Source of the DNA: Eledone cirrhosa
Lineage: Eukaryota
Assembly (NCBI GenBank): GCA_964016885.1
Contig: OZ024741.1
Location: 199,640,001 to 199,704,000 of the forward strand
Length of the DNA: 64,000 nucleotides
Reading direction: 5' to 3'
Shown: piece after piece, positions 4,999 through 51,439 of the stretch
How positions within the stretch are numbered: the stretch's first letter is position 1
Layout of the letters: every line of letters begins with the position of its first letter
The notes under the pieces: model-generated
Database searches by the model: none
The model's input: the letters and a program-made list of their open reading frames with translations, nothing else
Told to the model about the DNA's origin: nothing
Program-made: the position numbers and the translations under genes

Positions 4999-5478
4999 CA
5001 GATGTGAGAAAAACCACAGACCCTCCATCTCAATTCTACTTTTGAAAAGCAGAAGAACTGCGAAACGGGTAAAGGAACCAAATAAATATATATATATATT
5101 TTAAAATAAGACTCTAGTTGCATTTTCGATTTCATCTTTTTTTCTTTATATATATATATATATATTAGAAAGTGAGGTTTTTTTTACAAAATGAAATATA
5201 ACCGAGGTGTCCTACATGAGTGAAAGTATAAAGAAAAAGAGATGGAATCGAAAATGCAACTGGAGTCTTATTTTTTTTTAAAATATATATATTTATTTGG
5301 TTCCTTTACCGGTTTCGCAGTTCTTCTGCTTTCAGATGTGAGAAAAACCACAGACCCTCCATCTCAACTCACCTTTTGAAAAGCAGAAGAACTGCGAAAC
5401 CGGTAAAGGAACCAAATAAATATATATATTTTAAAAAAAAATAAGACTCCAGTTGCATTTTCGATTTCATCTCTTTTT

Positions 5479-5485
<7 letters not shown>
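4999..5485. repeat. Three copies of a ~150-bp PLE-like terminal unit (direct 4999-5148, inverted 5227-5332, direct 5333-5485)
   Basis: 106-bp inverted arms 5227-5332/5380-5485 with one visible mismatch; the unit contains a hammerhead-like motif and ends at (TA)n. Confidence 0.8.
5372..5409 (+). ncRNA. Minimal hammerhead motif, U3-A8 core variant
   Basis: cctt-TTGAAAA-gcag-aagaa-ctgc-GAAA-ccgg-TA-aagg; palindromic stem III ACCGGT. Confidence 0.6.
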
Positions 5486-5608: not shown

Positions 5609-5960
5609 AATTAAATTAAAAATGTACATCCACATATGTATACTGAAATACTAGTATGCATATGAATACACACACGTGTACATATGTAGATGTACCGAGT
5701 TTTTCACTGGACACTTTACTGTGAGTGTCCAGCTATTCTGTATGTAAACACACAGACAAACCGGTTTTTAGAGTCATACTGGTTTTCGAGGAAACACCTT
5801 TCCTCTATTCTCCAGTTTGTCTGTGTGTTTACATACAGAATAGCTGGACACTCACAGTAAAGTGTCCAGTGAAAAACTCGGTACATCTACATATGTACAC
5901 GTGTGTGTATTCATATGCATACTAGTATTTCAGTATACATATGTGGATGTACATTTTTAA

Positions 5961-5967
<7 letters not shown>
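5609..5967. repeat. Fold-back element with 153-bp inverted arms (5609-5761/5815-5967)
   Basis: Arms read as exact reverse complements; 53-nt spacer; followed by (TA)n. Confidence 0.9.
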
Positions 5968-6000
<33 letters not shown>

Positions 6001-6419
6001 TAGATAGATAGATATATATAGATATACAGGGGGAGAGAGAGAAAATAAAATAAGTTAGGTAAATTATCCTTGGAGATGGAAAAAGGTGGTGGACGGATTT
6101 GTTAAACTCTACAATCTTTGAAAATGTGGTAAAACAAATAAAAAAGTATTCATGTTACGACATTTGGTAATAAAACATACTTTCAAATATATGAATTTGT
6201 AAAATGAAATAATTTTTGAATTTTAAAAATGATAACTTCTTTATAAAATAATTTAGGTTGAATTTTGTTTATTTATATTTTCCATTTATGTATTCAATTT
6301 AATATCCACAACAAACTGAAGTTACAGTTGTTCACAAATGAATTGTAAATTATTGAACAGGTATCTTTTTCTTCACCCACTTATTCCTGGAGGGTCATGG
6401 AGGCAGAGTGTCTTGATTA

Positions 6420-6425
6420 TTTATT
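6420..6425 (-). terminator. Candidate polyadenylation signal AATAAA for the M4 gene
   Basis: AATAAA on the minus strand ~35 nt after the stop codon; a second one at 6268-6273. The region is AT-rich, so a chance match is possible. Confidence 0.35.
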
Positions 6426-6459
6426 ATTGAAAGCAGTTATTCAATTTCTGATTATAACT

Positions 6460-8445
6460 CTAATAATAATCATAATCAGCACCTTCACAAATATGACTAT
6501 ATGTTATATAATCATGAACTGAATCAAGTATAGAATCAATAGCACAGCTATAAGTTACAACTGTATCAACATGTTCTAAAGTTTCAGTAGATTCTGGAGA
6601 CAATTTGATGAAAATTTTATATCCATCAAGCTTTTCTAATTGCACTTCTGATGTGCCTTCAGCCAACAATGTAATTGGATTTGAACTATTTTTCCCCTCT
6701 GTTAACATATTACTCTTTGATACTTTAATATTAACTTTTCCACATATACTAGAAACATTAATTGTAATATTACTAGCCCAGCTTGGATAAATAAAATCAA
6801 AGACTGGATTCACACCAGGTGCCACTTTAATACCTGAAATTGTTCTGTTAACTGACAACCTTCGAACATATTTCTCTACATCGCATGGCTTAATCCCCAC
6901 AAGTTCAAAAGATTCAACAAAGGGGGTTAGATCTTTGCCAAGATCATAAGCAACTTTCAACATATCACAAGCACCAGATGTAAAATCTGTATTAGGATGC
7001 CAGTAAATTTGATTAGCAATGAGAAAAACTCTGTATGCTTCTTTGATGTCCATTTTTGCTTCATGCACAATGTAATAAAAAATATAATTATATATGCCAC
7101 TTCCAAAATGAGGATCTGTACCCTCTGTGAAATTATCAATATGACTTATAGATATATTGTCCAAGGTAGGGTCATCCATATATCTCATTGCCAGGCTATT
7201 TTTCATGATGTTATAACCAATTAACCAATCATTTCCATTTACATAAAATTCAGTTATTTCACCTGTTATATCAGAAAAGGCTTCATTAATAGATCCAGAT
7301 TGATTATAATAAATCAATCCAGAATGTTGTTCTGTGAAACCATGAGCAAGTTCATGTCCAACAATATCAGCATCAGTCAAAGGATAAAGCATTTCATCTC
7401 CATCACCAAATGTACAATATTTACCATCCCAAAATGCATTTCCAAAATTAAAACCAAAATGAACACGCATGATAGCTTGATCCTTTAGTATGGTATCATT
7501 AAACCATTCTTGAAACATCTGAGATACCAAACTACCAAAATAGAAAGCATCAAGTGCAGGAGAGCTGGCTGTGTTAACAGTATCATTAAAACCAATGTTA
7601 CATGGGTAATACAAAGGATCTGTCTTATTAAAGTATTCAGAATCAAATACAAAGTCGTTCTGCATGTCAATAACCTTTACATAATTATTTTCAAGAAAAC
7701 ACGTCTCACCGATTTGAGTTAGAAAAGCTTTATTCCTTTTCTCACTGAACTTGTATATTCCTGATTTTTCATTACCGCCAGAACCAGTCAGTTCTCTGAA
7801 AATAGTATCTAAATTGTTCCATTTCCTCAGTACTTCTCCAGTGTTGCCATCAATAATAAATGTAGGCCGCTTAATTTCCTTTTCGTTTTCTATTGTATAA
7901 CTCATATAGTATACTAATCGTGATTTTTCCTGATTATCCAGAAAAATTGTAATCTTGTACGTTGGATCTATATTTTCATTTGCATAAATCTCATCTTCTT
8001 CAGCTTTAAGTGCAATGTGTAAGACATCTAACTGTGAAAGTTTTGGTTTGACACTTGTGAGATCATTTTCAATCCCTTGAATAATTATTCCTGTTGCATC
8101 GCCAGTCAGATGTCCATCCCTATCCACTGTAACAGTCAAGGAAGCATCAAAAACAGGAACACCTAAGTATTTCTCATTTAAGCGAAAAACCTCCGAACCT
8201 TCAGCTGTTTCAATGCGCTTTGATACTTCCACTTCTTCATACTTGTTCAAACCAAGTAGATCTCGAATGGTTACTTTACTTTTATCTAAATGACGCCTCT
8301 GAAATGGAGATGAAGGATGATAAACCATCCTCTTTGCTCTTTCATGTGCATCAACACGATAAGCTGCATCAGATGTCTTTATCAGCAACAAACCTAAAAA
8401 TGAAGACATTATAATTACCAATAACAAGAACATAATAGCTTTCAT
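6460..8445 (-). CDS. Secreted M4-family (thermolysin/vibriolysin/pseudolysin-like) zinc metalloprotease preproenzyme, 661 aa, uninterrupted CDS
   Basis: Hydrophobic signal peptide; FTP-like (RLNEKYLGVPVFD) and PepSY-like (RPTFIIDGNTGEVLRKWNNL) propeptide; mature start GSGGNEKSG; NAFWDG, FGDG, HELAH (7342-7356), GLIY, NEAFSD and DPHFGSG catalytic motifs; ~110-aa C-terminal extension. Confidence 0.95.
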   Translation of the reverse strand: MKAIMFLLLVIIMSSFLGLLLIKTSDAAYRVDAHERAKRMVYHPSSPFQRRHLDKSKVTIRDLLGLNKYEEVEVSKRIETAEGSEVFRLNEKYLGVPVFDASLTVTVDRDGHLTGDATGIIIQGIENDLTSVKPKLSQLDVLHIALKAEEDEIYANENIDPTYKITIFLDNQEKSRLVYYMSYTIENEKEIKRPTFIIDGNTGEVLRKWNNLDTIFRELTGSGGNEKSGIYKFSEKRNKAFLTQIGETCFLENNYVKVIDMQNDFVFDSEYFNKTDPLYYPCNIGFNDTVNTASSPALDAFYFGSLVSQMFQEWFNDTILKDQAIMRVHFGFNFGNAFWDGKYCTFGDGDEMLYPLTDADIVGHELAHGFTEQHSGLIYYNQSGSINEAFSDITGEITEFYVNGNDWLIGYNIMKNSLAMRYMDDPTLDNISISHIDNFTEGTDPHFGSGIYNYIFYYIVHEAKMDIKEAYRVFLIANQIYWHPNTDFTSGACDMLKVAYDLGKDLTPFVESFELVGIKPCDVEKYVRRLSVNRTISGIKVAPGVNPVFDFIYPSWASNITINVSSICGKVNIKVSKSNMLTEGKNSSNPITLLAEGTSEVQLEKLDGYKIFIKLSPESTETLEHVDTVVTYSCAIDSILDSVHDYITYSHICEGADYDYY

Positions 8446-9011
8446 TTTTTTTTTCTTATTTAGTCTTTAAAGGCAATTTTCTGACAGTATGATAAATAAG
8501 CAATAAGGACAAGCATGTATTCATTTTAATAAGACTGGTTACAGTAGTGAAGTAAAAGAAATATAAGTTTACAAATAACTATCAACTCTGTTAGAGCAGA
8601 CAATGCAACTCAATCAGCCACCATGTTGTCAACAGCTGGTTGTATCTATAGCTACAAATTTATTGGGTAATGTAAATATAAGTCAAACTGTTACTATATA
8701 TATATATTCATCATCATCATCATCGTCATATATATATATACATATAATAAGAAGTGTAAATCAACAGGTTAAAATTAACTTCAATTATTCATAGTTGCTT
8801 TTATATATATTTCGATGATAAATATTATGCAACAGCTATGACCTCATCATACAGCTAGAATTTGAACAGAGAAACACTTCTTATTTATAAATATATTCCG
8901 GAGTAAATAAACCCACCTGCACACTTCGTCGAGTGCTCTACCCTGCATACAGAAGTGTCAATAATTAACCAACACAGACTCGAATTAATTATATATATAT
9001 ACACACATGTA

Positions 9012-9268
9012 TGAGTATTTTGTATATCTAGCGATATTGGTATGTTTATGAATAAACATTTTGAAATCTTTCAGCTATAAATTTTGGAAACTGTCTTGAT
9101 AATGACCAGAGTCAGAAACAATGTTCGTCATTGACAGTTTACCACCCTTACTTCTCCTGGAATCCGCTAGATGGTGCTGCATCATCAGTTTCTAAAATTC
9201 TGAACTGAAGCCTTTCAAAATGTTTATTCATAAACATACTGTATATCGCTAGATATACAAAATACTCA
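9012..9268. mobile_element. Fold-back element (arms 9012-9066/9213-9268) with a hammerhead-like motif at 9088-9140; partial second copy 60779-60935
   Basis: ~55-bp inverted arms; spacer aaactgtc-TTGATAA-tgac-caga-gtca-GAAA...TT-gacagttt; shared sequence with 60779-60935. Confidence 0.65.
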
Positions 9269-9344
9269 AACTTATATGCATACAGTTATGTTAGAATGAA
9301 CACCCTAATTCTATACATATATCTATCTGTCTATCTATCTATCT

Positions 9345-10045
9345 AGGACAGGTAAAATTCCCAAGGTCCGTGGACAAGTTCTCTCCAGCGGTCCCTGTCC
9401 TTCATCATTGCTGCTATGTCCCGCATCTCCCAGAGACCAGTGTCTGTCCTTAGGGCATCAACATATGTAATCCTATGTCTCCCTCTTCCTGTGTGTCCAT
9501 GTAGGGGCTCCCACAGGACCACTGAGTGCAATGTCAACTCTGAATGTCGGTGAGCATGCCCAACTAACCTATCTATTCTGTCTCACTTTAAAGCTGACTT
9601 TTGGGAGGCTCCTGTACAGCTCTGTTCTTCATCCTCGGTGTATACCGATTAATGTTCAGAGCCATCCACAGCATTCTTGTGAAGTACCCATCCACCATCT
9701 GAGAGTGTGTCTTGGTCAGTGTCCAAGTCTCAGATCCATAGAGCAGCACAGTCTCCACTGTAGCAATGAAGAGATGGATCTTCAAGTCTTTGAGGGTCTG
9801 ACTTCCACACCAACCTCAAACTATGACATGCCACCCAGGCTTTGCTCTTCCTCTCAACCACATCATCCTCTACATTCCCAATCTTTGCTCCCAGATACAG
9901 GAAGTCCTCAACCAGCTCTAGTGGCTTCTCGCCCACATTCATATTCTTCTCCGGCTCCTTGATGTTCTCTACCAGATACTTTGTATTACTCTCATTCATT
10001 CTCAGCCCCTTACATATCGACACAGTCTCCAGCACATGAAACACT
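9345..10045 (-). mobile_element. RTE-like LINE 3' fragment (RT C-terminus), frameshifted
   Basis: FLYLG, LLYGSETW and LWEP.HG..GRGR motifs; homologous to 41697-42315. Confidence 0.85.
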
Positions 10046-10599
10046 TGATGAAACGCATATATATACTAGCTGGCCCCGTGCCGTCAAAAATGACGGCTAA
10101 AGGGTAGATGTGTATTTGTATATACCTTTCAACTGTGGTCATTTTATATTCTTGATAATTCTAATTTATTTCGATATTGCTAGGGACTTGGCTCCTTGGA
10201 CAACACATACACAGATACACTCACACACATACACTTACCCACAAATACACTCACACACACATACACTCACACACGCATCCACTCACATACACATCCACTC
10301 CCAAAAGTGTAGCCAATCTAAGAATGCTGGTTAAAAATAATTATTACATACACACACACACATCATCACAAATATATACATAAACAGACTTAGAGAAAAT
10401 AATTATTACATGCACACACATATATGCGTGTGAATATGTGCTGTGTGAGTGTGTGTGTGCACGTGTGTATGTGTATATGTATCCATTTATCTTTTTGTGT
10501 AACTCAGGTGTAGCAAACACTGTTCCCTGTTTTCTATAGTTTGTCACAGCCCCCTTCCTTTCACACTCATCACATAGATGTGTGAGTATGTAATCATTA

Positions 10600-11259
10600 T
10601 CTAAACTATAATAAAGTAAGAAGCGCGGGACTGCGTACAGTTTATAATTGTTTATCCCATTAGTAAAATAAGTTGGATTACTTTGAATAAATAATGAATG
10701 AATATTACATAATTTATCTACTAAACTTCGTGGTTGTTCATTAAATATATTTTATTATTTATTTAAAGATTCACTTCTTTAAAATTTTCAAATTTCAACA
10801 CTTCCAGTGGCGATCGTTTAAATAAACATACTAATTTTCTGTCACTAATTTTCTCCTAATACAGTTTATATATAATTGTTTCTACGTTAGGCACAAGGCC
10901 AGCAATTAACCAGTGCATTACTGGTACTTTATTTTATCGACCCCGTAAGGATGAAAGGCAAAGTCGACCTCAGCGGGATTTGAAATCAGATCGTAAAGGG
11001 ACGTAACTATGCTGGAAAGCATGGCGTCCGACCCTCTACCGATACTGCCAATCCACCGCGTCTTTTTTAATGTATCGTGGATTACGTTACTGATTACATA
11101 AGACAGTGTAACGCAGTCTTCGTTCAATTTCTGTGTATATTGTCAATTACGATTTTATTTGACGAATCATATCTACATGTATATATATATGCATATAATA
11201 TCAATATACACACTACACATGCTAGCAGAAAACCACCCTTCGGGCTGTTTTTCTGCTAG
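10600..11259 (+). mobile_element. Second non-autonomous Helitron nested in the first, itself carrying a SINE
   Basis: Starts TCTAAACTATAATAAAG; ends with a ccc-ttc-ggg hairpin followed by CTAG; A|T target. Confidence 0.6.
10873..11058 (-). mobile_element. tRNA-derived SINE family B
   Basis: A box TGGCAGTATCGG, degenerate B box, conserved body GCCTTTCATCCTTACGGGGTCGATAAAATAAAGTACCAG. Other copies at 20945-21230 (+), 21722-21905, 30845-30937, 31751-31945, 39657-39768 and 56900-57060. Confidence 0.85.
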
Positions 11260-11371
11260 TTCTGTATAATGTATCTGTTTAAATATATATACTCATACAT
11301 ATCATATAGATGAGCTACTTCCCTTTGCGTGATGGACAAATACACAAGAGTTTTATATATTAGTAGATATT

Positions 11372-11427
<56 letters not shown>

Positions 11428-11519
11428 GGATTGTAACGTCAAGTTACTGTTGTTTCACCAAATTCAGCACTCAATGCATAATTTCTAGTATGTACTCTGG
11501 GGTTGTACTAAGCAGAGTG

Positions 11520-12030
11520 TAATAGTAATAATTATTTCTATTTTAGGCACAAGGCCAGCAATTACCCAGTACATTACTGGTACTTATTTTATCGACCCCG
11601 TAAGGATGAAAGGCAAAGTTAACCTCGCCGGTATTTAATAGTAATAATTGTTTCTACTTTAGGCACAAGGCCAGCAATTACCCAGTGCATTACTGGTACT
11701 TTATTTTATCGACCTCGTAAGGATGAAAGGCAAAGTCAACCTCGGCGGGATTTGAACTCAGATCGTATGGAAAGCATGGCGTCCGACCCTCTACTGATAC
11801 TGCCAATCCACCGCCCTATTTAATAGTAATAATTGTTTCTACTTTAGGCACAAGGCCAGCAATTAACCAGTGCATTACTGGTACTTTATTTTATCGACCT
11901 CGTAAGGATGAAAGGCAAAGTCAACCTCGGCGGGATTTGAACTCAGATCGTAAAGGGACGTAACTATGCTGGAAAGCATGGCGTCCGACCCTCTACCGAT
12001 ACTGCCAATCCACCGCCCTATTTAATAGTA
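11520..12030 (-). mobile_element. Tandem array of three SINE family B copies (one truncated, two near full length)
   Basis: Repeated units separated by tatttaatagtaataatt; B box GAGTTCAAATCC. Confidence 0.85.
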
Positions 12031-12519
12031 ATAATGAACATAGACAAGGTGTCAAATTATAATTAAGTTTATTCAGGCGTGATGCATGTTTCACAATTGA
12101 TTAACTCAAGGTTCAATCTCTATTGATTGGGCCCGACTCTGGAACCAAAAATTCAAACTTCTCTTTACTTAATGACTGAATGTTTTCGCATACAGCTTTA
12201 AAAAGATATATCTGTTCTCATTCATTTGGGGTAGTTAGTTGTTCTTTGTTTGATTGGTTGCTTTTGGGAAGAAATAATATGTGAAGAGGTGGGAGAGGGT
12301 AAGGGAATGTGTAGAAAGAAGAAAGGGACTCTGCCCCCTGACCTCTTAGGAATAAGTGAGCGAAGAAGTAGAAGAGTCAATGTGGAAGCAGATAGGTGAT
12401 ATCAGTGATCAGTGAGTGGGATCCATGGTATTAGAGTTCTTTCTTATGAAGGCAGATTTTCCCAGTTTTTTTAGAATGCATCTGAGGGTGTAGGGGCAGT
12501 GATTAAAGAAATCAGCCCT

Positions 12520-13030
12520 TGTGTTCAGATAGTTAATGAAGTTGTGTAGCTTTTTTAGAATGTTCCATCTTTCCACCATACACAGTCAGCACATCCTCAA
12601 TCCATTTGCATAGGGTTGGGATTTTTCAAGAATCTTCCATTTGATAGATAAATTAATTCCACTGTCTTTACGTGTCCATACACTGGCTTGCTAGTTTAGG
12701 GCCTGATCCTTTTCCAGATAACTGAAGGTTATCCCGTGGTTTAAAAACCATTTTTAATATCAGCCTTTGAACATTTCCATGTACGTTCTGACCTCCTGTT
12801 GCTGGTTTGGTTAGATTGACATGACCTCGGCTTCATATATCACAGCTTGGTCAAGGGGCATGTTTCTGATCGTCTACATAGGTAACCTGGTATGTAGGAG
12901 CTCATGGGCTTGTTGGTGATATAGGTTTTTACATTCATGGCACATGAATATCCAATATTAATATGTTTATTACAAATTTGTATTTGTGGTCTACAGGGAA
13001 ATGTTTATTCATAACAGCTAAAAATCTTAA
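12520..13030 (-). mobile_element. Degraded Naiad-like PLE GIY-YIG fragment
   Basis: Minus strand reads ...IKWKILEKSQPY... plus remnants that resemble the C-terminus of the 48135-50534 ORF. Confidence 0.5.
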
Positions 13031-14394
13031 TTTTATATTTATTAAAATTGTTTTCCAAATTCTAATTCTCTGATGTTCAAAACCTTAAATCCAAATACAA
13101 TTTTTCAAACAGAAAAGCATAATAAAAAAGTTTGTAGATTTTATTTTTTCCTCTCCCATGGTGATATGATCCCCCCCCCCCTACATCTATCAATGCCTTT
13201 CCACTGTTGATGCCACAATAAAAATGCACTCAGTCCACTCTGTAAAGTGGTAGTGCTGGTGCCATGATAAAAAAGTACCCAGTCTATACTGTATAGCAAT
13301 GAGGTTGATGCCACAACAAAAATGCAGCTAGTCCACTCCCTAAGGTGGTAGTGCTGGAGTTATGACAAAATGCACCCAGTATCTTACAGGATGTACTGGG
13401 TACATATCTTACTTATATATGTTCCTGTACTCTACAGTGGGTACGAAGTGTATTTAATTGTGACACCAGCACTAGGGATGTTGTTATGTCTTTGACAGCT
13501 GGAGCATCCTCTGGACCCTTTGTTTTCTATGGCTGGATGTCTTTCCTAACATTAACCACTTTACTGAGTGTACTGAGTGTGTTTCTCAGGTCACCAACAC
13601 TAGAAAGTTTGCCAGTTGTTAATCTAAAAGCCATATCGGGTGGGGAAGGATGAAAGGATGGTAAGAAGAAAGATAAATATGGTATCACGGGTGTATGGTG
13701 GGAAGAAGAGGTGAGAAAGTATGTCATGGGTGTATGCCAAGTGGTGGGATTTTACAAGTTGATGAGTGGGAGGGTAGGGTGTCATCTCTGATAGCATGGG
13801 AGGTACTATGATGATTAGAATAGCTACTGAGGACTTATGATTGGTATGTTTGAATTTAAGACAGGTAGGGTGGTTCTGGACAGAGTTGGGGATGAGAGTG
13901 TAGAGTGTAGCAATGGTTGATGTGGAAGTGGGCATGAATGGATCAAGCCATTTATCTTGAAAGGCAAGTTTTCTTTAGTATCGCACAGCCCATTTTTCAT
14001 GATCCTTTGTTATCTCTGTCACAAGGTTTAGTTTTCTAAGATCAGTTTTCACAACTACATCCCATGTCTTCCTATGTCTATTTCTTCCACAAATTCCATC
14101 CACTAAGATTTCTCTTAATTTATTTATACCCATTATATGTCTATATCCATCATAGCATCATATGTCCATACCAATACAATCTTCTTTCTTGCATACTACA
14201 TCCACTTCTTCTTATACCAAGTTTCTATCTCAGTTCGTTCCTTCCACCACATTCTTACCCTGGTTATCACACTTTCAGAGTATCATCCACAACTGTTAAT
14301 GAGGTCACCTAGGTAAGAAAAGTTATCAACAACTTCTGGAGAGCCTTCCTGGCAACTGTGGGAGTCTATTTCCCATGTGATCATAGTTCTTATT

Positions 14395-14710
14395 TCTCCT
14401 GTACATCTGCTGTATACAAAGTCTATAGGTTTTACTTGTGGCCACTGCACGGGGGCAGTAAGTAGCAAGAACCCTCAGAATACAATCACTTTCAAATGCT
14501 CAGAGGGCTCAGTTGAAGTGGTAGATACTTTCTGTTACCTGGGTGACCAAATCAATATTGTGGGAGGCTGTTCTGAAAGCACAGTAACCAAAATGAGATC
14601 GGCTGGAGAAAGTTCAGGGAGTTACTACAGTTATTAACTACAAAGGGTTTTTCCCTCAAAATGAAAGGCAGACTGTATGATGCATGTATACGAACAGCAA
14701 TGTTGCACAG
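14395..14710 (+). mobile_element. RTE LINE fragment joined directly to Gypsy pol
   Basis: FCYLGD...[16 protein letters not shown], matching the RTE ORF at 28923-29372. Confidence 0.7.
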
Positions 14711-17080
14711 CATGATTTCGCTTCTTCCCTTCTCGGATGTACCATTTTTTCGAAATTGGACTTGGTCAGGGCTTATCATCAAATTCCTGTGAATCCTACT
14801 GACATTCCGAAAACGGCTGTCACTACTCCTTTCAGCACATTCAAATTTTTAACAATGACTTTTGGATTACGCAATGCTGCCAGTACCTTCCAGCTTTTTA
14901 TTTACAAAGTCGTTCGTGATTTAGACTTCGTATACTGCTATATCGATGACATTCTGATTGCGAGTGCTTCACCGGAGGATCATATCACGCACCTCCGCCT
15001 ACTGTTTGAGCAATTTAGTCAGTACCAAGTTCACATTAACCCTGCGAAGTGTATTTTTGGTGCTGCTTCACTCGTCTTTTTGGGCCAATTTATCAACACA
15101 GAGGGAATATCACCACTTCCTGATAAAATGAAGGCTCTTCAAGAACTCCCTCTGCCTACTTCCTTGTGACAGCTGCAGCAGTTCCTTGGTCTCTTAAATT
15201 TCTACCGTCGATTTATTCTGCATTGTGCAGAACTCTTGTCTCCACTGTCCAATCTGTTATGCGACAGAAAAAAGAAGAATGAACCTATTTCCTTGGGTCC
15301 AATGCAACTTGAAGCATTCTCTAAAGTCAAACTTGAATTAGCTAACCTGTCTCTTCTTGCACACCCTGTGTCTGGTGCCCAGTTTTCGGTGGTTGTTGAT
15401 GTATCAAACATAGATGTAGGTGCAGTATTGCAACAGCATCACCAGCAACAGCTACATCTTGTTTTCTTTTCAAAACAGCTAAAGCTCGCCAAAACCTGCT
15501 ATAGCACTTTCGGCCACGGACTTTTAGCTATTTTCCTGACTGTCAAACATTTTTGACATTCACTGGAAGGCCGACATTTTACAATCTTTACTGACCATCA
15601 TCCGCTTACATTTGCACTTTGTTCCAAGCTGGACAAATGCTTGCCTCGGGAAACTGGTCATTTGGACTTCATTTCCCAGTTTACGAATGACATTTGTCAT
15701 ATCCCAGGTGACCAAAATACACCGGTGGATGCCTTAGCTCACCTGCACATCAATTCCTTGTCAGCACCCACGGATATTGACTTGCAACTCTTGGCTTCAG
15801 AACAGCCCATCCTAGAGTCGCTGGATCTCTCTTTGCCAGAATTAGCAACCTGCAAATTCAAATACCTGCCTGTATCCACTTCGGACTCTCAGATTCTATG
15901 TGATACTGCGACCGTTTCACCTCGCCCTCTGGTCCCAGAGGCTAATCATCGAATAGTTTTCAACTCTCTACACAGTCTGGCACACCCCGGAATTTCAACC
16001 ACAGTGAAACTCATTTCGGCTAGATTCTTCTGGCCGAATATGAGACGTGATATCACTGCTTGGTCACGTTCCTGTTTGTCTTGTCAGAAGTCGAAGGTGA
16101 TAAGCATATTCACGCACCCCTCAGCACATTTAGCACTCCAGATGCTCGTTTCAGCCATGTGCATATTGATCTTGTTGGACCTTGGCTAGTCAGTCAGGGA
16201 TTCACGTATCTCCTTACCTGTATCGACCGCTTCACACATTGGCCTAAAGCCATTCCTTTAAGTGACATTTCGGCAGAATCTGCAGCGTGAGCCCTGATAT
16301 CGGGTTGGATATCGCATTATGGTGTTCCTACCACTATCACCACCGACCGTGGTGAACAGTTCGAGTCTCATCTCTTCCTGGAGATTTTGAAGATTTTAGG
16401 AGTATAGCGCATTCGGACTACCAACTACCATCCAGCTTCCAACGGCATGGTAGAATACTTCCACCGCGAATTGAAGGCTGCCTTGCGTGCTTATCCTCAT
16501 CAGCAGCGTTGGAAAGAGTACCTACCCATTATCCTTCTTCGCTGTCGTTCAGCAGTCAAGGAGAATCTCGGATACTCCCCAGCCGAGTTAGTTTATGGAG
16601 TACTTTTATCTCTGTCGGGTCAGATGTTGGCCCCAATTGACTTATCTTTGTCAGATCCAACTGTGTACCTAAATAGACTTTGATCGTATTTTAACGATCT
16701 TCCGCCGATAAATCCTCGGCAACAAGCTATTAAATCTTTGGTTCCGAAGAACATTGCTTCATGGACCCTTGTGTTTCTTAGGAAGGACACCATAAGAAGT
16801 CCACTCAGGCTGCCCTACACACGACCTTATCGTGTTCTTTCACACACAAACAAACTTTTCACCATAGACATTTGTGGGAGAAAAGAAACTGTCTCCATTG
16901 ATAGGGTGAAATGGGCCTTTTCAGAAACTCTTACACCAGAGCCCCATACACCCCCACATACACTGTTCATCATCAAACACAGGCTACACCTTCACAATTG
17001 CACACATCTTTCCCACCTCCATCTACATATGTCACAACTACACAGAGTGGCCGCCATGTTTCCTACGAAGATGTACTGAA
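14711..17080 (+). mobile_element. Gypsy/Ty3 LTR retrotransposon pol remnant (RT-RNase H-integrase), disrupted
   Basis: [33 protein letters not shown]; RNase H FFSKQL...YSTF; HSLAHPG...CLSCQ zinc-binding motif; HIDLVGP; multiple stops and frameshifts. Confidence 0.92.
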
Positions 17081-17539
17081 TATTATCGACAAAGATGTGT
17101 TGATTATTTCCTATATTGTTCCAGGAAGTTCTTTCTAGTCCTTGCTAACTTATCAAATGAACGGTCAGTTAATGTACAGCATTTGCTTTTAATTTAATAT
17201 CTTAATGTGCGCTCATACATTTGGCCAACAGAACAATAAAATGTATATATAACGTTACTGAGTGTCGAAGGCATAATTATTTGTAGATTGGTATCAGAAG
17301 GCCGTTTGTTGCATGCATTAAGGAAGAATCATCATGACATTACGTTGTAACCTTTCCATGAGACAACAATTAGATACCACTGAAAATGTATGATAACTCC
17401 GGACAAAGGTATTTCCTCGAAGCCTTATTTTACAATGATTAAATTGTACTTTTTATATTACATATACGAGTACAATCTAATGTCTCAACTCTTCCAACTC
17501 ATTCAAAATAACTGAAAGTATAAATATGTATTCCTCACT

Positions 17540-18635
17540 CTTTCCGTTATAGGTACACCAGGTAATTGAGGTAATCAGAGTGAATGATAGAATAATTAAA
17601 CTTAGACTAGCCTTGGGCAATATTGCAGCCACTATATTATCTACATATGCCCCACAAGCTGGACTTGCATACAATCAAAAAGACCATTTCTCTGAGGCCC
17701 TCCTACAGACTACTACAATGTCAGATGACAGTGATCTTATGATCGCAGCTGGTGACTTCAACTGACATGTTGGGAAACAAGAGGATAGATTCTCTGGCAT
17801 ACATAGAGACTACAGATATGGCACAAGAAATGAGGAGGGAACTAGGCTTCTGGAGTTCCATGATGCTCTTGACTTAAGGATCTGTAACACAACCTTCAAG
17901 AAACCAGTCAACCACCTGATTACCTACAAATCAGGGGGGCATACAAGACAAATAGACTTCATTCTTGCCAGAAAATGAGACAAGCAAATAGTTGTAAATA
18001 CAAAGTCCTTCCCTGGGGAAGAATGTACTTCTCAACATAGATTAGTTGTCAGTGACTTTAGAATAAGGGATAGGAGGACCAAGAGACAAAAGTCAGTCTG
18101 GAGAAGGAAGACTTGGAACCTGTTAGAATCTTCTGTAGGTAACAAATTTAGAGAAATCTTTTTTGATGCCTATGACAGTAAGAAAAAGGAGCTAGGGACA
18201 TATGACATGGAGAAAAATTGGTAATTTCTACAGGACCACCTGCTGGAAGCAACAAGTCATGTCTGCGGCTGGAGCAAGGTCCCACCAAGATGGAGAGTGA
18301 TATGGTGGTGGAATGACAAGGTAGTAGAAAGAGCCATTAAAATAAAAAGACAAACTTGGAGAAAATGAAGAACTGGAGGAGACGGAAAGAAATACTAGAT
18401 AGCAAGAAGGGAGGCTAGATGCCAAGTTTATCTAATGAGGGGAGATGCATGAAGTGTTCAGGTTTGCGAGATAGTATGCTAGAGAAAATTGTGATGTGGT
18501 TGAAGGAAAGTGTGTCTGAAATGACAGTGGAGCACTTGCCCTGTCTGACATTGAAAATAAGGAGGCATGGAAGACATACTATGAGCGACTGCTGAACAAG
18601 GTAAATGAATGGGACCTCTATAAGTCCAACCCGCA
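17540..18635 (+). mobile_element. RTE LINE APE endonuclease region, degraded
   Basis: YAPQ, GDFN, IDFIL and QHRL motifs across broken frames. Confidence 0.8.
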
Positions 18636-19444
18636 TTTGAAAAGTTTGTCTATCACTGCAACTATTACTGTCAAATTTCCCTGTACATCTACTGCATACG
18701 TAGTTTTCCCTACCTGTTAGTTTGCCAGCATTGTGTATATTTTATAGAGTTTATGCCAGCTCCTTTTCTACATATCAAACATGGCCATATTTCTGACGGA
18801 ATCAGAGTTTTGTCCTCTTTTCTACTCAACACTTTTGTCTTAGCTAGGTTCACTCTCAGTCCTCTTGATTCCAACTGCTGTTTCCATAGCCAGAATTTAT
18901 TTTCTAGCTCTTCTACTGATTCTGATATAAGAACCAGATTGTCAGTATAGAGAAGTTCCCATGGGCAGCCAATCTTAATCTCCTCTGTTATGGCTTGAAG
19001 GACTATAATGAACAGGGACCACCAGATGACAGATCGGGGTACCCTATCAAAGGCCTTCTCTAGGTCAACAAAAGCTAAGTACAGTGGCTCTAAGAACCTC
19101 TCTTGTAATTGTCTCACCAAGAAGAGGGCATCTGTTGTACTCATCCCAGGCGCAAAAAAAACAAACTGCATCTCATCTAGTTTGAGCCTTTCTCTAATTA
19201 GTTGTGCTAATATCCTTTCTGCCACTTTCATAACCTGATCCATCAGCTTTATGCCTCTATAATTGCTCCTCTCCAGAGCATCCCCTTTACCTTTGTAGCA
19301 ATTTATGAGAATACTGCTGCACCAGTCTTTGGGTATGACACCACCATATATAGCCTGATTGATGATGCGTGCAACCAGTTTAGTACCTACTTCTCCTGAT
19401 GCCTTCACCATCTCAGCAACTATCCCCAACGGTAAGATTGTCAT
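18636..19444 (-). mobile_element. RTE LINE reverse transcriptase fragment
   Basis: KGKGD..ERSNYRGI, AFVDLEKAFDRV and ELLYTDNLVL; homologous to 63550-64000. Confidence 0.9.
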
Positions 19445-19859
19445 TGAAAGGTTTTTGGTATGAACAGTTTCTCTCTTAATATGATTAGTGTGGTGTAGTG
19501 TTAATTAATATAGCTAACATTTTAATTGAGGGAAGGATAGAATGGTTTTCTTTTATAACGGTATGTTTAATGTTAAAAAAATATGTTTTGTTGTAGAGGG
19601 TATAATATATTATCTGAATTAATTTTTTCTTAATTTTGTCTATGTTGTTTAGTTTGATATAATGTTAAAGGGTTAGTTTTAGATAATTAGATAAATGTGT
19701 TATTGTAGCTATGTAATCGCATTTTTGTGTGGTGGGTTTGTCTTTATGGAAACTAGATGGATAGAAGAACAGCTTGTGAGAACAGTGCAAGCCATGTTTT
19801 AGAGGACCTGTCAGAAAAGGGATATTAGGAAATGAGTTTAGTGAGGAATTCAAGATAAA

Positions 19860-20420
19860 TATAGAAGGCCATCAAGACTCAGTCCCCAGCCCAGTTCTGT
19901 TTATAGTCCACTAGGCCATAACAGAGGAGTTTATGACTGGCTGTCTATGGGAACTTCTGTATGCTGATGATCTGGTCCTCATAGCAGAATCTGTAGAAGA
20001 TCTAGAGAATGAATTCTGCCTATGGAGACATAACTTATAATCAAAAAGGCTGAAAGTGAACTTAACAAAAGAAGTGTTCATAAGTAGGAAGAAAGACAGG
20101 TGCCTGATTCCATCAGAGAAGTGAGTTGTTTAGTATGTAAAAAAAAAGAGTAGGCATAAACTCTATACGACGTACACAAATCTTTGGTACACAAGAGGTA
20201 TAAGCAGGATAACAGGTAGACTAACAGGAAAGGAAAACTTTGTATGCAATAGATATTCAGGGACAATTGATAGTAAGAATGTCAGGGATTTAAACCTTTT
20301 CTAGTCCCAGGAAGGATCCATAGATGTGGTTCAGAGCTTCTGCTGCCTAGGTGATCTAATTAGCAGCGACATAGATGATCTGAGAGCATAGTGGTTAGAA
20401 TAAAGACAGGATAGAAAAAG
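19860..20420 (+). mobile_element. Degraded RTE RT fragment
   Basis: LWELLYADDLVLIAES encoded near 19945-19995. Confidence 0.7.
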
Positions 20421-22060
20421 TTAGCCCTCAACTAGTTTCATAAAAATACTGGAAAACTAGGAGTAGAAATAGTAAAAGTGTTTTCGAAATTTATATATAT
20501 ATATAGTTTATATTAGATTTCATTTACTTAATATGTATGTGTGACCTTAGATTTTGAGATTTTGAGGTTCAGCTATGGAAAAACTGTTCTAGAAACTGGC
20601 CTCTCTCGTCAAGTGCAAGGGCAAATTTGCTCTTTTGTATTAGACTGAGCATTGTTTTATGTGTGTGTGCATACACACATACACATATATACATATATAT
20701 TTAATATATCAGGGAGCAGTGAAGGTAAATGCCCTAGGCCATCCCTCATCAAACAACTCCCCACTCTCTGAACAGGACCCCCACCAAATAGAGCTCCTGC
20801 TGCCTTTTATCAATGATGGTGCTTGTTGTGTATATATATTTATGTGTGTGTGTATGTGTGGTTATATGAGGGGTTCACCAAACCTGAACTACCCATTCCC
20901 ATCAAGGTCTAGATCTGGTCCTGGCCATAATCATGATAATGTTATCGGTAGAGGGTCAGACGCCATGCTTTGCAACATAGAGTCACGGACCTTTACGATC
21001 TGAGTTCAAATCCCGCTGAGATTAACTTTGCCTTTCATCCTTACGGGGTCGATAAAATAAAGTACCAGTAATGGACTGGGATAAAAAACATAACTAAAAA
21101 AAAACAATCAACCAAGAAACAAACAGAATGCTGTTGTTCACCCCATTATTTCTTCTACTCAAATAAAGTACCAGTAATGCACTGGGTAATTGCTGGCCTG
21201 GTGTATAAAGTAGAAACAATTATTTCTTCTACTCAAAAGTCTTAAAATTTACTTGTTATTATATTGTGTACGTTTGTGTGTGTGTATGTATGTGTACGTA
21301 TGTGTATCTATGTGTGTGTATATGTCTGTGTGCATGTGTGTGTGTGTGTATTTATACACTTCATTGAATTTTTTTTTCTGTGAATGAAATTTCATTATAA
21401 CAAATCTTAGTATTAAAGCAATTTCATTGACAAAGCGAAATAAAATATAATAAAATAATCCATTCTTATAGTTTGGGCCTACTCAGAGTTTCTCTTTCAT
21501 GCTTCTCTTTGTTGAGTACACAAGAGATGTAGTGGGATAGCAGGCAAACTAACAGGTAGAGAAAACTATATATGCTGTAGATGTACAGGGAAATTTGACA
21601 GTAGTAGTCGCAGTGATAGACACATTTTTCAAATGCGGGTAGGACCTACAGAGGTGGTTGATATCTTCTGAGGCCATAGTATCTAGAATAAGGATCTAGA
21701 ATATATATGTATAATATTAATAATAATTGTTTCTACTTTTGGCACAAGGCCAGCAATTACCCAGTACATTACTGGTACTTTATTTTATCGACCCCGTAAG
21801 GATGAAAGGCAAAGTTAACCTCGACGGGATTTGAACTCAGACCGAAAAGGGACGTAACTATGCTGGAAAGCATGGCATCCGACTCTCTACCGATACTGCC
21901 AATCCATATTAATAATAATAATGGTGTTGCTGTTATTGGGTACAAAATTTACCAGAAGGTTAAAGCTCGATGCAAAGCCTATTCCCGATGGTAAATAGTA
22001 TTTGGAAAGACCCATGGAAACATTGTTTCCTCGGCCCGATTTGACGAAAATCGATCTATT

Positions 22061-22111
<51 letters not shown>

Positions 22112-23189
22112 TATATGTATTATCATCATTTTACATCCACTTCTCCATTCTTTTTTGTGGATTCAAACATATTACCTCTCACATTTCCAATGTCAATCAA
22201 ATTCATTTAATTTATATACTGGAGTCAAAAATCCTTGCCATAAATAATGCAAGAAAATTAATGTAAGAAAATGTAGTTGTAAAACATGGGAATATAAATT
22301 ATTAAACATTTTTGTATACTTACTGCATATTAGATGCCCAAAACACAATAAAATCAATATGTGCCTCATACTTGCAGAATATTCAAAAATAATATGTTCT
22401 TTCCAAAATACCAACTCTATACTGAGACAAATCTTTTCTAATTCCTTTTTATAGTGTCATCAAAAATTTTGTCACCCACTCTTTCTGTACCCACCTTAAT
22501 TCAAAGTACTGATTATGAACAGTTAGCTAAAAAGTTGTATTTATGCATCACTTTCATTACATTTATATATATTATGATAATGTGTTATTTGAGTTGCCAT
22601 TATTTTTAAATGGTTACCTGACATTTAAGGTGAAATAGAGGGGCATTTGTAAATATATTTGTTCTTGCTCATTAACTCTATTGCTAAATATAGTAGAATA
22701 TATTTAATTAGAATTAGGAGCAATCTTAACAGCTTACATTCAGAGCAACTAAATAACAAAACAATCAGCATATACTAATATTAGTCATAATCTATTTCAT
22801 ATTATTTAGGTTTCTGAAATCATTTTTTACCCATTCTTTCCCCCTAAAATCCACCCAACCTTGTAGCAGTTCGAAATATATATACATATATATAGTAAAA
22901 TGTTACAGTATCGTAAAAGAGGATAGAAAGAGGAGGTATAAAGAGGCGCGATACAGAGTATTACATACCAAAAGTGGGTGCGTAAGTGCTCGATGCTTGG
23001 GTTATCATGGTTAAATATTAAAGAAAATTAATATTTAGTGTACAGGATTAAGCAGAGCGGTGATAGGTAAAATAATTAATGAAAGAGTTACAAGCCGTTA
23101 AATCATATCTTTATAAAGCTCTGACACATGTTTCGTCCAATGGGGCTCGTCTGAGGCAGATATTAAGGCAAAGATTTAATTATATACCC

Positions 23190-48005: not shown

Positions 48006-50372
48006 TTAAGGGTTCGATTTGTAGTGCGAAAACTTCTCTTTGAGGCTATGGTTACAATAAATTGATCTCTCGATTTTATTGTTGAGTAACCTATTCTTCG
48101 AACTTAAGATGTGGAACAGCTCAAGGTTGCATAATCAACAGCTTCTCATACCACTCCGATATGGGGGTGCGTTCGATAATTTTTTCCACTTCAGGGTGTA
48201 TTGATGGTTACTTTCCCTCAGTTGCCAGGTCTTGTTTGCAAGGGTAGTTACATAACGGTGCTGGGAATGTTTCATTGTGTAACAGTGTGTATACCAACGG
48301 GCTTTAAATGTATTCCCAGTCGTTCCGATGTAATACCATTTCTGGTTCTCTGATTCCACTGTGCATTGGTAAACCAGGTTAGACTGCATACATTCATTTT
48401 GTAATGGACAGGTTTCAGGTAGGTGGCAGTTACAGTTCTTGTCATGGGCAACTTTAGCATTATTTGTGGGCTGCGATGCCTGAACAAGTGTGTTACGTTT
48501 TGTTTGCCTATTAGCGGGTGGTTGTGTATTAGATATTCTGTTGTGTTCGGTGGTAATTGTATTGTTATTGTTGTAAATTTGTGTTTTGGTGTTGTTATGT
48601 ATCTTTTTAGCGTTAAGCATCTTAATGTGTGCCTCTATATTTGGTGCCGTGGAGTAAGATAGTCTAATAGATTTAGTGTTAAGGATTTTGCTGTATCTAT
48701 GTGAATCTGGAAAGTGCTTATTTATTATTCTAAAGAAAGTAGAGGGTAGGTTAGTACTAATAGAGGTGTTAAATATGGGGTTATACCAAATATATTTTCT
48801 ACTGCGTGACTTGTTTGATTTCGATGTTGTATTTCTATTTGCCGTATACTTTGCAGTTCTATGCGTAAATGTGTGTATGCGTGTGTTTCTGGAGTTTGTG
48901 TTATGCGTGTTCGTGTGCGCTTCACGGAGGCTTTCATCTATATATTCTACTCTATCTAAGTGGCCTGCCTTGTCTAATGCGGTATTGTAGTATTCTGCAT
49001 GTTCTTCGAAGATTTGTCGGTTAGACGAGAGGCGGGAGATCCTAAGGGATATGCTGCATGGAATGGATTTAATTATTGATAGTGGGTGGTTTGAGTTACA
49101 GTTGATGTATGCTAAGTTTTCATTAATCTTGTGAAAAGGTCTTATAAGTCCCGTATTTAGGTTAAGCTTCACATCTAGAAAGTTAACTGTTTTAGTGCTA
49201 TACTCATACGTTATGCTAAGGTCTAGTTTTCCGAGAGTCTTTCTAATATTCTTATGGAGTCTTTCTATGCTCTGGTTATTTAGGTTCTTAACTAGGAGAA
49301 GGGCGTCATCTCTGTAGATTCCACCGTGAAGGTCGCTAAACTCACTTTGTAAACTATGGCCTATGTAAATACCTACTAAGTCTGTGACTTGAGCCGAGTC
49401 GTTAGCCCCCATCGTGATGTCAAAGTTATTTAATCTATCCTTAAGTTCCCAATAGGCGTTTTCAAATTTAATTATTGTTTTTCTAGCAGCTAATATGATT
49501 TTTATCTCGTCGACTGTTATGTCAGAATTGGCTTTGGCGAATGCTAAGGCTTTATCCAATGTGTTGGGGGATATAGATGAGTAATAATCGTTAATGTCAA
49601 ATTGTATAAATTTAGATACTTCTTTGTTAGCTATATTGTTAAACCACTTAATTGTTTCGGTAGCGTTACCCCATAGTTTAATCACTAGTTTATTCTTCAT
49701 TTGTGCTATCACTCTGTCTAATATATGTTTACTAATTTTCCCGATGTCCGATTTGGATGGGCATATAAGTCTAATTGTGGGGTTATAATCAAAATTTACC
49801 TTGTGGTCTTTGAGGTTAAATGTGGGGGTACATGGCTTAAGTGGCTCCGTTCTGTCATCTATTCCTAGGTGTTTGACTATATTGTGTGCCTCGTTGTTGA
49901 TGTTTATCAGTGCCGCCTCATTTGTTTTTTTGTATTTCCTATGTAATTCCTTCCGTATGAAGCTATTGTATGTATTAACATCCATCGTATACACATTTGA
50001 TGTTTTGTCCGCTTTGACAATAATTCCATTGGTGGTTCGCAGCTTTTTTAGGAATGTATTTATGTCATTCTGGAGTTTATTATTCCGCCACTTTTTTAAT
50101 TTGATATTCATAATCATCTTCAGTAAGACCTGTTCAAAGGCATCCAGTTGAGGGTTGGTAGGTGGGTTCTTACACGATTTGAAGCCGTATGTTTCCTTGT
50201 TATATTCCACGGTGCGACCATTATGTCCTTTGTCGAAATGGAAAGTTTTCCATCTAACTCTGCATATAAAGTCGCTTGTTCGCTGTATCATCCCGAGAGT
50301 ATAATCCCTTCTCTGAGGTATAGGAATGTTCCTTAGGGACATACCTATGTAATGCTTTTCCATAGTAGTACG
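48006..50372 (-). mobile_element. Near full-length Penelope-like element ORF (RT + GIY-YIG), Naiad-like, with one in-frame TGA
   Basis: SLRNIPIP, KADKT, FDINDYY, MGANDS, YRDD, FLDV, CNC...CPL..C and LVY...YYIG; the frame continues 42 codons past the TGA at 48135 (LCNLE...LLN...CNH). Confidence 0.9.
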
Positions 50373-51439
50373 TAATGGTTGCACCGTGGAATAAAACAAG
50401 GAAACATACGGCTTCAGAGAAGACACATAGAACACAATAGTATTAAGATGAGGGATGTATGGCGATGTGTTTGTTGGTGGTGTTGGTGGGGGTGAATGGT
50501 GCGACATGATATTTACACGATCTGATCTTACCATGGGTTACATGTTATAGAAGACAAATGTATTGAGATGAGGGACGGTGTGGAAAAGCAAATTTGGTTA
50601 TCCCTATATTGGATCAGGGTTAGTGTTTGGATATATATATATATATATATATGTATGTACATAGTTTAGAAATGTAAAGGAAACACAAACATAAAACAAT
50701 TCCCCTCTTCAGTTGTCTGCTATGTGTCGCTGATATTTCAACTCATTAAAGACAATATAGCTATCCACAGTGCGTTAATAACTTCAAGTAGTTATTAGGG
50801 AAGGAAAAGACAAAAAAAAAGAGACAATAGCAGAGAGAAAGAAAATAAACAGAAGAAAAAAAGAAAACATACCAATAGAGAGGAGGAAACACGAGACAGT
50901 AGTACATGTATGTAGCAGTAAGCAAGGGGAGAGAGGAAGAAGTTAAAAAGGTGACCTGGTGTAAACCCTGAGATGTTATTAACAGCATGAGAGAGAGCGA
51001 AGAGAAACATGTCTGATCTTAGTGAGAACAGGCGTAAAGAGGGAGAGATGAAAGAAAATTGAAGTAGTAAGGGAGCTGAGAGAGAGGGGATAGATGGTGG
51101 GAGAGAAAGAGGATAAGTGAGTGGGAGAGAAAGAGAGAAAAGGAGAGAAAGAAAGAGGGAGAAATGAAGGAAAAGAGTTAATCCAAATTGTAGGACTTAG
51201 TCCAAGACAGGGATAACAACAACAAGAGAGATGGAGAGAATAGAATGAAGGTCACAGCAATAAATTAATAAGAATTAAAAGGGACAAGGTGTTGTGTGGA
51301 TACTAATAAAGATTGTTTAGAAATGTAAGGGAAACAAACATAAGACAATATTAATTTATTGCTGTGACCTTCGTTCTATTCTGTCTATCTCGCTTGTTGT
51401 TGTTGTCCCAGTCTTGGGCAGTTTTTGTTTAAAGGCTTC

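Follow-up and report, generated by a model that had tools for sequence, protein, structure and literature searches.

A 64,000-nucleotide stretch of the Eledone cirrhosa genome (assembly GCA_964016885.1, contig OZ024741.1, positions 199,640,001 to 199,704,000; hereafter the window, part of contig C2 of a 3.0-Gb genome) carries a gene for a metalloprotease of the M4 family. An open reading frame (ORF) scan placed a 661-codon uninterrupted ORF at 6460–8445 on the minus strand, the plus strand being full of stops. The first-pass annotation, made from the letters alone, had reported this ORF with its motifs HELAH, NEAFSD, DPHFGSG and GSGGNEKSG, and all of these are indeed present. It had also taken the gene for a lone, intact ORF of bacterial style beginning with a signal peptide. 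Our analysis points to a different structure: the gene appears to have two exons and a 13.9-kb intron, to extend over about 16 kb of a transposon field and to belong to a set of eight paralogues.

The similarity of orthologues to the window protein begins at codon 18 of the ORF, codons 1–17 match no orthologue N-terminus, and an AG acceptor lies at 8395–8394, after a T-rich tract. Codons 1–17 are therefore best read as intron. The N-terminus proposed earlier (17 codons and one base, 8394..8445, minus strand) would thus be open and hydrophobic by chance, and the signal peptide placed there falls mostly within the polypyrimidine end of the intron. A more convincing start was found upstream. When 1732 upstream GT[AG] donors were scored against orthologue N-termini, a single clear best emerged (score 33, the next being 23), a GTAAGT donor at 22323. 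The coding part of the corresponding exon 1 (22324..22369, minus strand) comprises ATG plus 15 codons (MRHILILLCFGHLIC) and one further base, and would encode the first half of the signal peptide. Joined to exon 2, it gives an open frame and a spliced protein of 659 residues. The splice signals, the contigs described below and the open joined frame all support a phase-1 GT...AG intron of 13,930 bases (8394..22323, minus strand), which is filled with microsatellites and retroelement remains, including reverse transcriptase (RT) fragments at 14684–15169 and 18710–19444 detected in a Pfam scan. Exon 2 (6252..8393, minus strand) would contribute the end of the signal peptide, the propeptide, the catalytic domain, the tail, the stop codon (6462–6460) and the 3′ untranslated region with a poly(A) signal, AATAAA, at 6268..6273. 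The base composition of the gene appears host-like, with a GC content of 0.33 in the M4 core and 0.23 at third codon positions.

Four sequencing runs of one study contain the locus: X1–X3, of about 1.4 billion letters each, and X4, of 88 million letters and from a different sample. The X1–X3 contigs start at 6067 or 6369 and reach 8723–8724, passing through the coding region into both flanks. Their depth at the M4 locus is 4.7–7.3, compared with 3.8–9.4 for a unique intron contig (12115–13237). The locus is physically part of the host genome, at single-copy depth across its flanks; these contigs thus provide the linkage of gene and flanks that had been proposed earlier as a check. We regard the gene as integrated because it has an intron, orthologues and flank-crossing contigs at this depth. 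Two coding differences between run contigs, at 6507 (residue 647, Ile/Val) and 7389 (residue 353, Leu/Phe), are consistent with alleles.

The X4 contig behaves differently. It has 2311 letters at a depth of 44.5, and its letters 170–2311 align to 6252–8393 with one mismatch, so that it ends exactly at the splice acceptor (8393) and 16 bases past AATAAA (6252). X4 depth is zero in two bins upstream; in the bin 8176–8509 it is 29.1, and a 44.5-deep contig ending at 8393 would by itself predict 29.0. The DNA-like runs continue through the acceptor, whereas the transcript-like run stops there. From these contig ends we infer that the gene is spliced and expressed, X4 being presumably an RNA library, although the run type is not on record, and its contig a spliced mRNA. 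The remaining 169 letters of that contig, if colinear, would reach up to 22492. This fits a start upstream of the TATA box in a candidate core promoter (22421..22453, minus strand), in which TATAAAA (22453–22447) and an initiator-like TCAGT (22425–22421) lie 30 bases apart and may be used; a second TCAGT is present at 22512–22508.

The predicted protein resembles a secreted M4 peptidase in its organization. Pfam profiles matched Peptidase_M4 (E 6e-25, 88.8 bits, cut-off 22.4) and Peptidase_M4_C (E 2e-27, 96.5 bits, cut-off 24.4). The propeptide at 7819..8235 (minus strand) includes an FTP domain (ORF residues 71–114; 24.2 bits, cut-off 21) and a PepSY-like region (residues 135–209). The FTP half of the earlier propeptide assignment thus stands, whereas PepSY remains under the Pfam cut-off in the window protein (19.5 vs 24 bits; orthologue P0008 passes with 26.6), even though the propeptide fold resembles that of the MCP-02 vibriolysin propeptide (3nqz_A; Foldseek E 1.8e-13). 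Near the propeptide start, a furin-type site, RAKR (residues 36–39; 8329..8340, minus strand), may be cleaved; RxK/RR within residues 16–75 occurs in 7 of 18 animal and none of 19 bacterial proteins. The signal peptide itself was judged from sequence and orthologues.

The catalytic domain (residues 218–521; 6883..7794, minus strand) retains the complete active site. Alignment assigns the zinc ligands H364, H368 and E388, the catalytic E365 and the further active-site residues Y379, D392, R421 and H446. The Tyr, His and Arg of M4 peptidases are their transition-state and substrate residues. H364, E365, H368, E388, D392, R421, H446, C249, C282 and C521 are invariant in all 68 aligned rows, Y379 is conserved in 66, and the third ligand, Glu, follows the second His by 20 residues (NExxSD), which is the M4 family spacing. 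The enzyme is probably catalytically active. The cysteine pairs C249/C282 and C493/C521 align with cysteines of Pseudomonas aeruginosa LasB, as the first-pass annotation had suspected, are kept in 67–68 of the 68 rows and represent putative disulfides of the LasB type. A structure model built from the 68-row alignment (mean pLDDT, the predicted local distance difference test, 89.5) has the two-lobed thermolysin-like fold, with a root-mean-square deviation of 1.5 from vibriolysin MCP-02 (3nqx) and one weak linker at 211–214, directly before the expected mature start.

The C-terminal tail, overlooked in the first-pass annotation, most likely represents a diverged PPC domain (residues ~526–634; 6544..6870, minus strand) followed by a short helix. 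Its profile matched bacterial PPC tails with a probability of 94.9 (E 4e-8; 99.0 for the tails of clade B, defined below), Foldseek matched it to a collagenase PPC domain (5sv5, E 2.8e-4), and PPC was also the top Atlas lead. The Pfam PPC profile gave no match on the window protein and scores below the cut-off in paralogues L004 and L007. In the tail, C634 and C653 may pair.

Other assignments did not hold. Peptidase_M36 (fungalysin) gave no match in the window protein at E 1, and only distant fold matches with 11–14% identity were seen. HExxHxxGxxH is the motif of animal metzincins; here its Gly position is occupied by Thr371, and there is no Pfam match to this group (astacin, ADAM, MMP). N-glycosylation as an animal adaptation was likewise dismissed, sequons being similarly frequent in 18 animal (1.01 per 100 residues) and 19 bacterial (1.07) proteins.

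The E. cirrhosa genome has eight M4 loci above the M4_C cut-off, all without stops and distributed over four chromosome-size contigs (one each on C2, C4 and C25, five on C27). At each of them the propeptide, catalytic domain and tail lie in one open frame, the catalytic core is intron-free, and a phase-1 acceptor precedes the start of the propeptide by 8–11 codons. In five of the seven upstream stretches scanned, the best-scoring match was a corresponding first exon with a GTGAGT donor; for paralogues L006 and L002 no first exon was found within 10 kb upstream. The acceptor shared by all loci, together with the first exons, therefore indicates that the intron is older than the split between clades A and B. 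For paralogue pairs dN/dS (the ratio of nonsynonymous to synonymous substitution rates) is 0.11–0.26, with dS saturated.

Four young clade B copies, L003–L006, lie in alternating orientation on C27 (G000:C27:5223328-5280246). They differ at 46 of 301 catalytic-domain residues, compared with 3 of 191 in the propeptide and 1 of 113 in the tail (Fisher p 4e-11), and over six pairs the catalytic dN/dS is 0.7–1.55. The changes are concentrated near the NAFY strand, just ahead of HExxH and near the VHxS loop. Such a pattern fits either copies that diversify in specificity or flanking parts that undergo gene conversion. Another clade B paralogue, L008/L009 (G000:C27:8973981-8976935), has about 320 residues of tandem repeats, inserted in frame into the linker that connects the propeptide to the catalytic domain; Thr-rich inserts occupy the same position in P0335, P0254 and P0376.

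How widespread is this family? Protein searches listed the best 120–150 matches each (in the representative search, 150 of 670 proteins at E <=1e-30). Among the matches listed, the closest proteins come from Octopus bimaculoides, O. sinensis, O. vulgaris and Argonauta (67–73% identity), followed by further proteins at 52–54%, snails and bivalves at 34–40% and named bacteria at no more than 39%. The Octopus and Argonauta orthologues have a matching first-exon peptide, and O. sinensis and O. bimaculoides list at least three copies of the subclade of the window gene, compared with one in E. cirrhosa. Named members come from Pomacea, Haliotis, Littorina, Pinctada, Argopecten, Mizuhopecten, Ostrea and Sepia pharaonis, as well as from the chiton Liolophura and the brachiopod Lingula, so that the range covers four mollusc classes and one brachiopod; many further members occur, often several per large contig. 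In Lingula anatina P0339 a C-type lectin domain takes the place of the expected PPC tail, an animal domain fused to a bacterial-type protease. Many animal members carry an 'A-R-R-V-D'-like extension after the signal peptide, which is missing from five bacterial proteins compared and from Lingula. A member was also found in the transcriptome of the gregarine Siedleckia, a polychaete gut parasite; we suspect that the record belongs to the polychaete host. Among 360 matches listed, most of them without a name, there was no named animal outside Lophotrochozoa and no named deuterostome, ecdysozoan, cnidarian, sponge, fungus or plant. The early suggestion that M4 genes may exist in other invertebrates, and that the transfer could be ancient, is thus borne out by RefSeq-annotated proteins, and a transfer confined to the octopus lineage or recent in date does not agree with closest relatives that are animal.

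A 383-row FastTree placed all 31 rows from named molluscs or from the E. cirrhosa genome in one 65-row clade that contained no named bacterium (support 98). The main tree comprised 77 rows (37 animal or animal-like, 34 ingroup bacterial or bacteria-like and 6 outgroup) and 468 columns. Its 37 animal or animal-like rows formed one branch with a support of 98 in the Shimodaira–Hasegawa-like approximate likelihood ratio test (SH-aLRT) under both LG+G4 and LG+C20. The split between animals and bacteria reached 99.8 without the outgroup, 99 on 88 rows, and 99.6 with a bootstrap of 94 in a 42-row subset without the outgroup. The mollusc clade (support 97–99, bootstrap 99) divides into clade A, with the window gene, chiton, snails and bivalves, and clade B, with cephalopods and bivalves. 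The branch uniting animal and proteobacterial enzymes against thermolysin-type outgroups has a support of 100. In the 77-row trees the animal branch is nested inside the proteobacterial group, with a sister position equally likely on root tests. The maximum-likelihood tree proposed as a check thus bears out a distinct animal branch (SH-aLRT 98–99.8) and leaves its nested or sister position tied. A first tree, which had one long outgroup and a root inside the animals, was set aside as long-branch attraction.

A prokaryote genome search with the window protein yielded one distant locus among 137 candidates. A metagenome scan around P0133 gave 14 loci among 105 candidates, none of them that of P0133 itself, and the nine added to the tree grouped with bacteria. 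The donor can be placed no more closely than the proteobacterial pseudolysin/vibriolysin group.

Taken together, these data make us moderately confident that the window carries a two-exon M4 gene of a mollusc and brachiopod family which likely arose by one ancient acquisition from a proteobacterium and whose products are likely secreted to degrade proteins of food or mucus. An ancient bacterial origin of the family is highly probable; with the root position tied between alternatives the tree does not prove it, and the horizontal acquisition proposed in the first-pass annotation stands to that extent. A single origin for molluscs plus brachiopod is also probable. In this reading, the gene would have been acquired once, before the split of molluscs and brachiopods, and domesticated by gaining a phase-1 intron within the signal peptide before an old duplication produced clades A and B. 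The signal peptide would be encoded by exon 1 together with the opening codons of exon 2, and the FTP/PepSY propeptide would fold and block the enzyme before being cut off near residues 211–217. Zinc would be held by H364, H368 and E388, with E365 acting as the general base and cleavage occurring before hydrophobic residues. The PPC tail might bind protein substrates, as PPC domains of a related enzyme do (PMC3327674). Unless cited, these steps follow what pseudolysin and vibriolysin are known to do.

As to what the presumably secreted enzyme does, we favor a mainly digestive, extracellular role, at slightly less than even odds. In O. vulgaris paralarvae, three rows labelled 'Vibrio vibriolysin' were higher in wild animals (supplement of PMC6635378), in a list that also includes chymotrypsinogen, astacin, alkaline phosphatase, matrilin-3, papilin and an inter-alpha-inhibitor chain. 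The tables examined contain no Vibrio housekeeping genes and just one further row with a Vibrio label, a hexosaminidase; Vibrio is absent from the main text in the part available (PMC6635378). That other row, a diet- or temperature-responsive octopus transcript labelled Vibrio vulnificus beta-hexosaminidase (sheet 4 of the same supplement), could itself be another old bacterial-type host gene. Both the paralarval rows and the Siedleckia transcriptome member are weak leads for a digestive role.

Several observations weigh against the reading of a single ancient acquisition that gave rise to a digestive enzyme. The junction of exons 1 and 2 is predicted rather than directly observed, and the library type of X4 is unrecorded. 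The 383-row FastTree gave the wider animal-like group no support and placed four animal-like proteins among bacteria. In the 77-row set, holding the 34 ingroup bacteria together was 25.9 log-likelihood units better than the first free tree (p-AU, from the approximately unbiased test, 0.77). When 17 outgroup attachment points were compared under LG+G4 and C20, the sister and nested roots were tied (p-AU 0.77 vs 0.64 and 0.58 vs 0.69, respectively), and animal-internal roots remained unrejected in five of seven and four of seven cases. The deepest animal-like rows (P0133, P0137, P0140 and P0027) carry no taxon name; if these four were bacterial, the split for the rest would have an SH-aLRT of 60–98 and a bootstrap of 83. 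Lingula is the one non-mollusc animal that is named. Finally, the paralarval 'vibriolysin' transcripts could come from other paralogues or from real Vibrio, and their list also has matrix proteins such as matrilin and papilin.

The alternative that survives best concerns function alone. The same gene, with the same origin, may serve matrix remodelling, hatching, mucus turnover or surface defence, a possibility that we hold tentatively but take seriously. It would account for the matrilin-3, papilin and inter-alpha-inhibitor chain that rise alongside the vibriolysin-labelled transcripts (PMC6635378, as far as the supplement goes) and for the lectin tail of the Lingula copy. The four young C27 copies differ nearly exclusively in the catalytic domain (46/301 vs 4/304 sites), and such divergence is expected under conflict with inhibitors or microbes. 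Against it stand the digestive enzymes on the same paralarval list and the bacterial relatives, which PMC3831164 describes as nutrient-acquisition proteases.

It appears unlikely that related marine proteobacteria passed the gene on more than once, independently to molluscs and to brachiopods and annelids, and that long branches then united these lineages in the tree. The animal branches are indeed long, the wider animal group lacks FastTree support, the grouping of Lingula with molluscs weakens when the unnamed basal rows are excluded, and the tails differ (PPC, lectin or extended). However, the animal split has a support of 98 under the C20 mixture and 99 with the nine metagenomic bacterial neighbors added, and the 'A-R-R-V-D'-like extension is shared by many members but by none of the five bacterial proteins (nor by Lingula).

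Vertical descent of an old eukaryotic or early-animal gene, lost in most lineages and resembling bacterial enzymes through a much older relationship, seems improbable. Root tests favor a nested position no more than one that separates animals from bacteria, and other animal phyla may hide among the mostly nameless matches or beyond the best 120–150 listed per search. Yet no animal outside Lophotrochozoa, fungus or plant is named among the 360 matches listed. Moreover, the animal enzymes are 33–39% identical to one proteobacterial subgroup and only about 25% to thermolysins and have the cysteines and PPC tail of that subgroup, and in E. cirrhosa the catalytic core is intron-free at all eight loci.

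A part in cephalopod venom or saliva is distinctly improbable. A secreted, tissue-degrading protease of a predator, with copies expanded in octopods, would suit such a role, but the family is kept in non-venomous filter feeders and grazers. Keyword searches of two cephalopod venom papers, a gland transcriptome and a supplement on the O. vulgaris posterior salivary gland gave no mention of the family in the parts available (PMC12607849, PMC7656900, the supplement of PMC7693380 and the main text of bioRxiv 10.64898/2026.04.09.716377), bearing in mind that name searches can miss entries under other or wrong labels. Venom is unlikely as the original role because bivalves, the grazing abalone, the chiton and the brachiopod keep the family, and the earlier idea of venom or symbiont control as a founding role is not supported for the same reason. 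Bacterial contamination, misassembly or recent transfer into the octopus lineage, which might be suspected from the intron-free core, from LasB, ProA and vibriolysin as best structurally known relatives and from the lack of a listed contig spanning the whole locus (X1–X3 may be the assembled sample), is of negligible probability and is refuted by the animal orthologues and their shared spliceosomal intron, the identities of 67–73% to other octopods, compared with 39% or less for named bacteria among the matches listed, the paralogues on four large contigs, the host-like composition and the allele-like coding differences.

The remainder of the window is dominated by mobile elements. Microsatellites and retroelement remains flank the M4 gene on both sides, as the first-pass annotation had described. 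Among ten ATG-initiated ORFs of at least 150 residues, the M4 ORF is the only one assigned to a non-transposon gene. The claim that it is the only intact ORF outside transposable elements holds to this extent and no further: of the eight ORFs scanned, four others match RT, integrase or GIY-YIG and three have no Pfam match, two lie outside the scan, and an ORF scan is blind to other multi-exon genes. One of the unmatched ORFs, at 48135–50534 (minus strand), is uninterrupted over 799 residues and hence longer than the M4 ORF (no Pfam match at E 0.001); by eye we take it to resemble a Penelope-type retroelement protein. A 196-residue ORF at 51620–52210 (minus strand) with Cys/His clusters and no Pfam match is, at a guess, probably a DNA transposon remnant. 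Downstream of the M4 gene, inverted repeats (5030–5130 vs 5280–5480) and a near-perfect hairpin-like element (5640–5970, centered near 5800) are probably miniature inverted-repeat transposable elements. Inside intron 1, copies resembling short interspersed nuclear elements (SINEs) are arranged head-to-tail at 10880–12030 and have very high depth in all four runs; a further SINE-like copy lies near exon 1, at about 21730–21900.

The window locus is thus an ordinary member of a mollusc-wide, probably lophotrochozoan, M4 family, whose ancient bacterial origin is apparently undescribed in the open literature searched. According to PMC7851659, M4 peptidases are known from hardly any organisms other than bacteria. 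Our search of open-access literature, with subscription journals outside its scope, found no description of the animal family, its function or its origin; the accessible parts of PMC8476170 and PMC6006793 do not mention M4 enzymes. The RefSeq proteins of Octopus, Haliotis, Pomacea, Ostrea, Mizuhopecten and Liolophura bear purely automatic names ('neutral protease', 'elastase(-like)', 'virulence metalloprotease', 'hemagglutinin/proteinase-like' and 'pseudolysin'), and peptidase databases may already list mollusc M4 proteins. If molluscs have kept M4 enzymes of their own throughout the history of the phylum, the family ranks among the oldest genes gained from bacteria in this branch of the animals. 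It would add a class of enzymes, likely digestive, that matters for the farming of octopus and shellfish. Transcriptome entries of molluscs that bear the label 'Vibrio vibriolysin' may stem from the host itself. Research on vibriolysins treats them as virulence factors directed at bivalves, and molluscs that own M4 enzymes raise the question of how the host distinguishes its own enzyme from that of the pathogen. A bolder version is possible, if on balance somewhat doubtful: one Vibrio-type virulence protease entered the common stem of molluscs, brachiopods and annelids and became an undescribed animal family of secreted gut proteases, gaining a signal-peptide exon, duplicating before the mollusc radiation, diversifying to this day at its active-site cleft in octopods and being overlooked under 'Vibrio' labels.

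How does the family compare with known systems? Bacteria-to-animal transfers are reportedly known from centipede venom families; the M4 case would be far older and phylum-wide. The same difference applies to the genes of the clam Archivesica, likewise bacterial genes fixed in an invertebrate genome, whose 2020 description stated that no earlier horizontal transfer had been reported in Mollusca (PMC7826175); its main text, in the part available, contains no M4 term, the 173-gene candidate table being outside that check. Among solved structures, sequence comparison ranks LasB pro-elastase (E 2e-84), ProA and vibriolysin MCP-02 highest, well before thermolysin at E 3e-30, in line with the gammaproteobacterial Vibrio/LasB type recognized in the first-pass annotation, here in the form of an integrated, conserved animal gene. 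The octopod enzyme shares with LasB, MCP-02 and the Vibrio HA/protease a predicted pre-pro architecture, HExxH with the downstream Glu and the Tyr, His and Arg helpers. It also shares with LasB and the vibriolysins the two cysteine pairs, the GGN mature start and the fold (template modelling (TM) score 0.93–0.95 to mature enzymes, 37–39% identity), and with the vibriolysins the PPC tail. In contrast to these enzymes, it comes from a nuclear animal gene that has a spliceosomal intron and encodes its signal peptide in exons, has a longer propeptide start with a furin-type site, and carries a PPC domain that is strongly diverged from that of vibriolysins and capped by an extra helix and cysteines. 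Legionella ProA is the top Foldseek match (E 1e-31, 38%), but the ProA equivalog NF045902 scores 318.7 bits against a cut-off of 900, and none of the trees places the Legionella M4 enzyme as sister to the animal branch. Thermolysin, bacillolysin, aureolysin and protealysin have the family motifs and fold in common with the octopod enzyme; at 21–27% identity and TM scores of 0.66–0.81, they form the outgroup of the tree.

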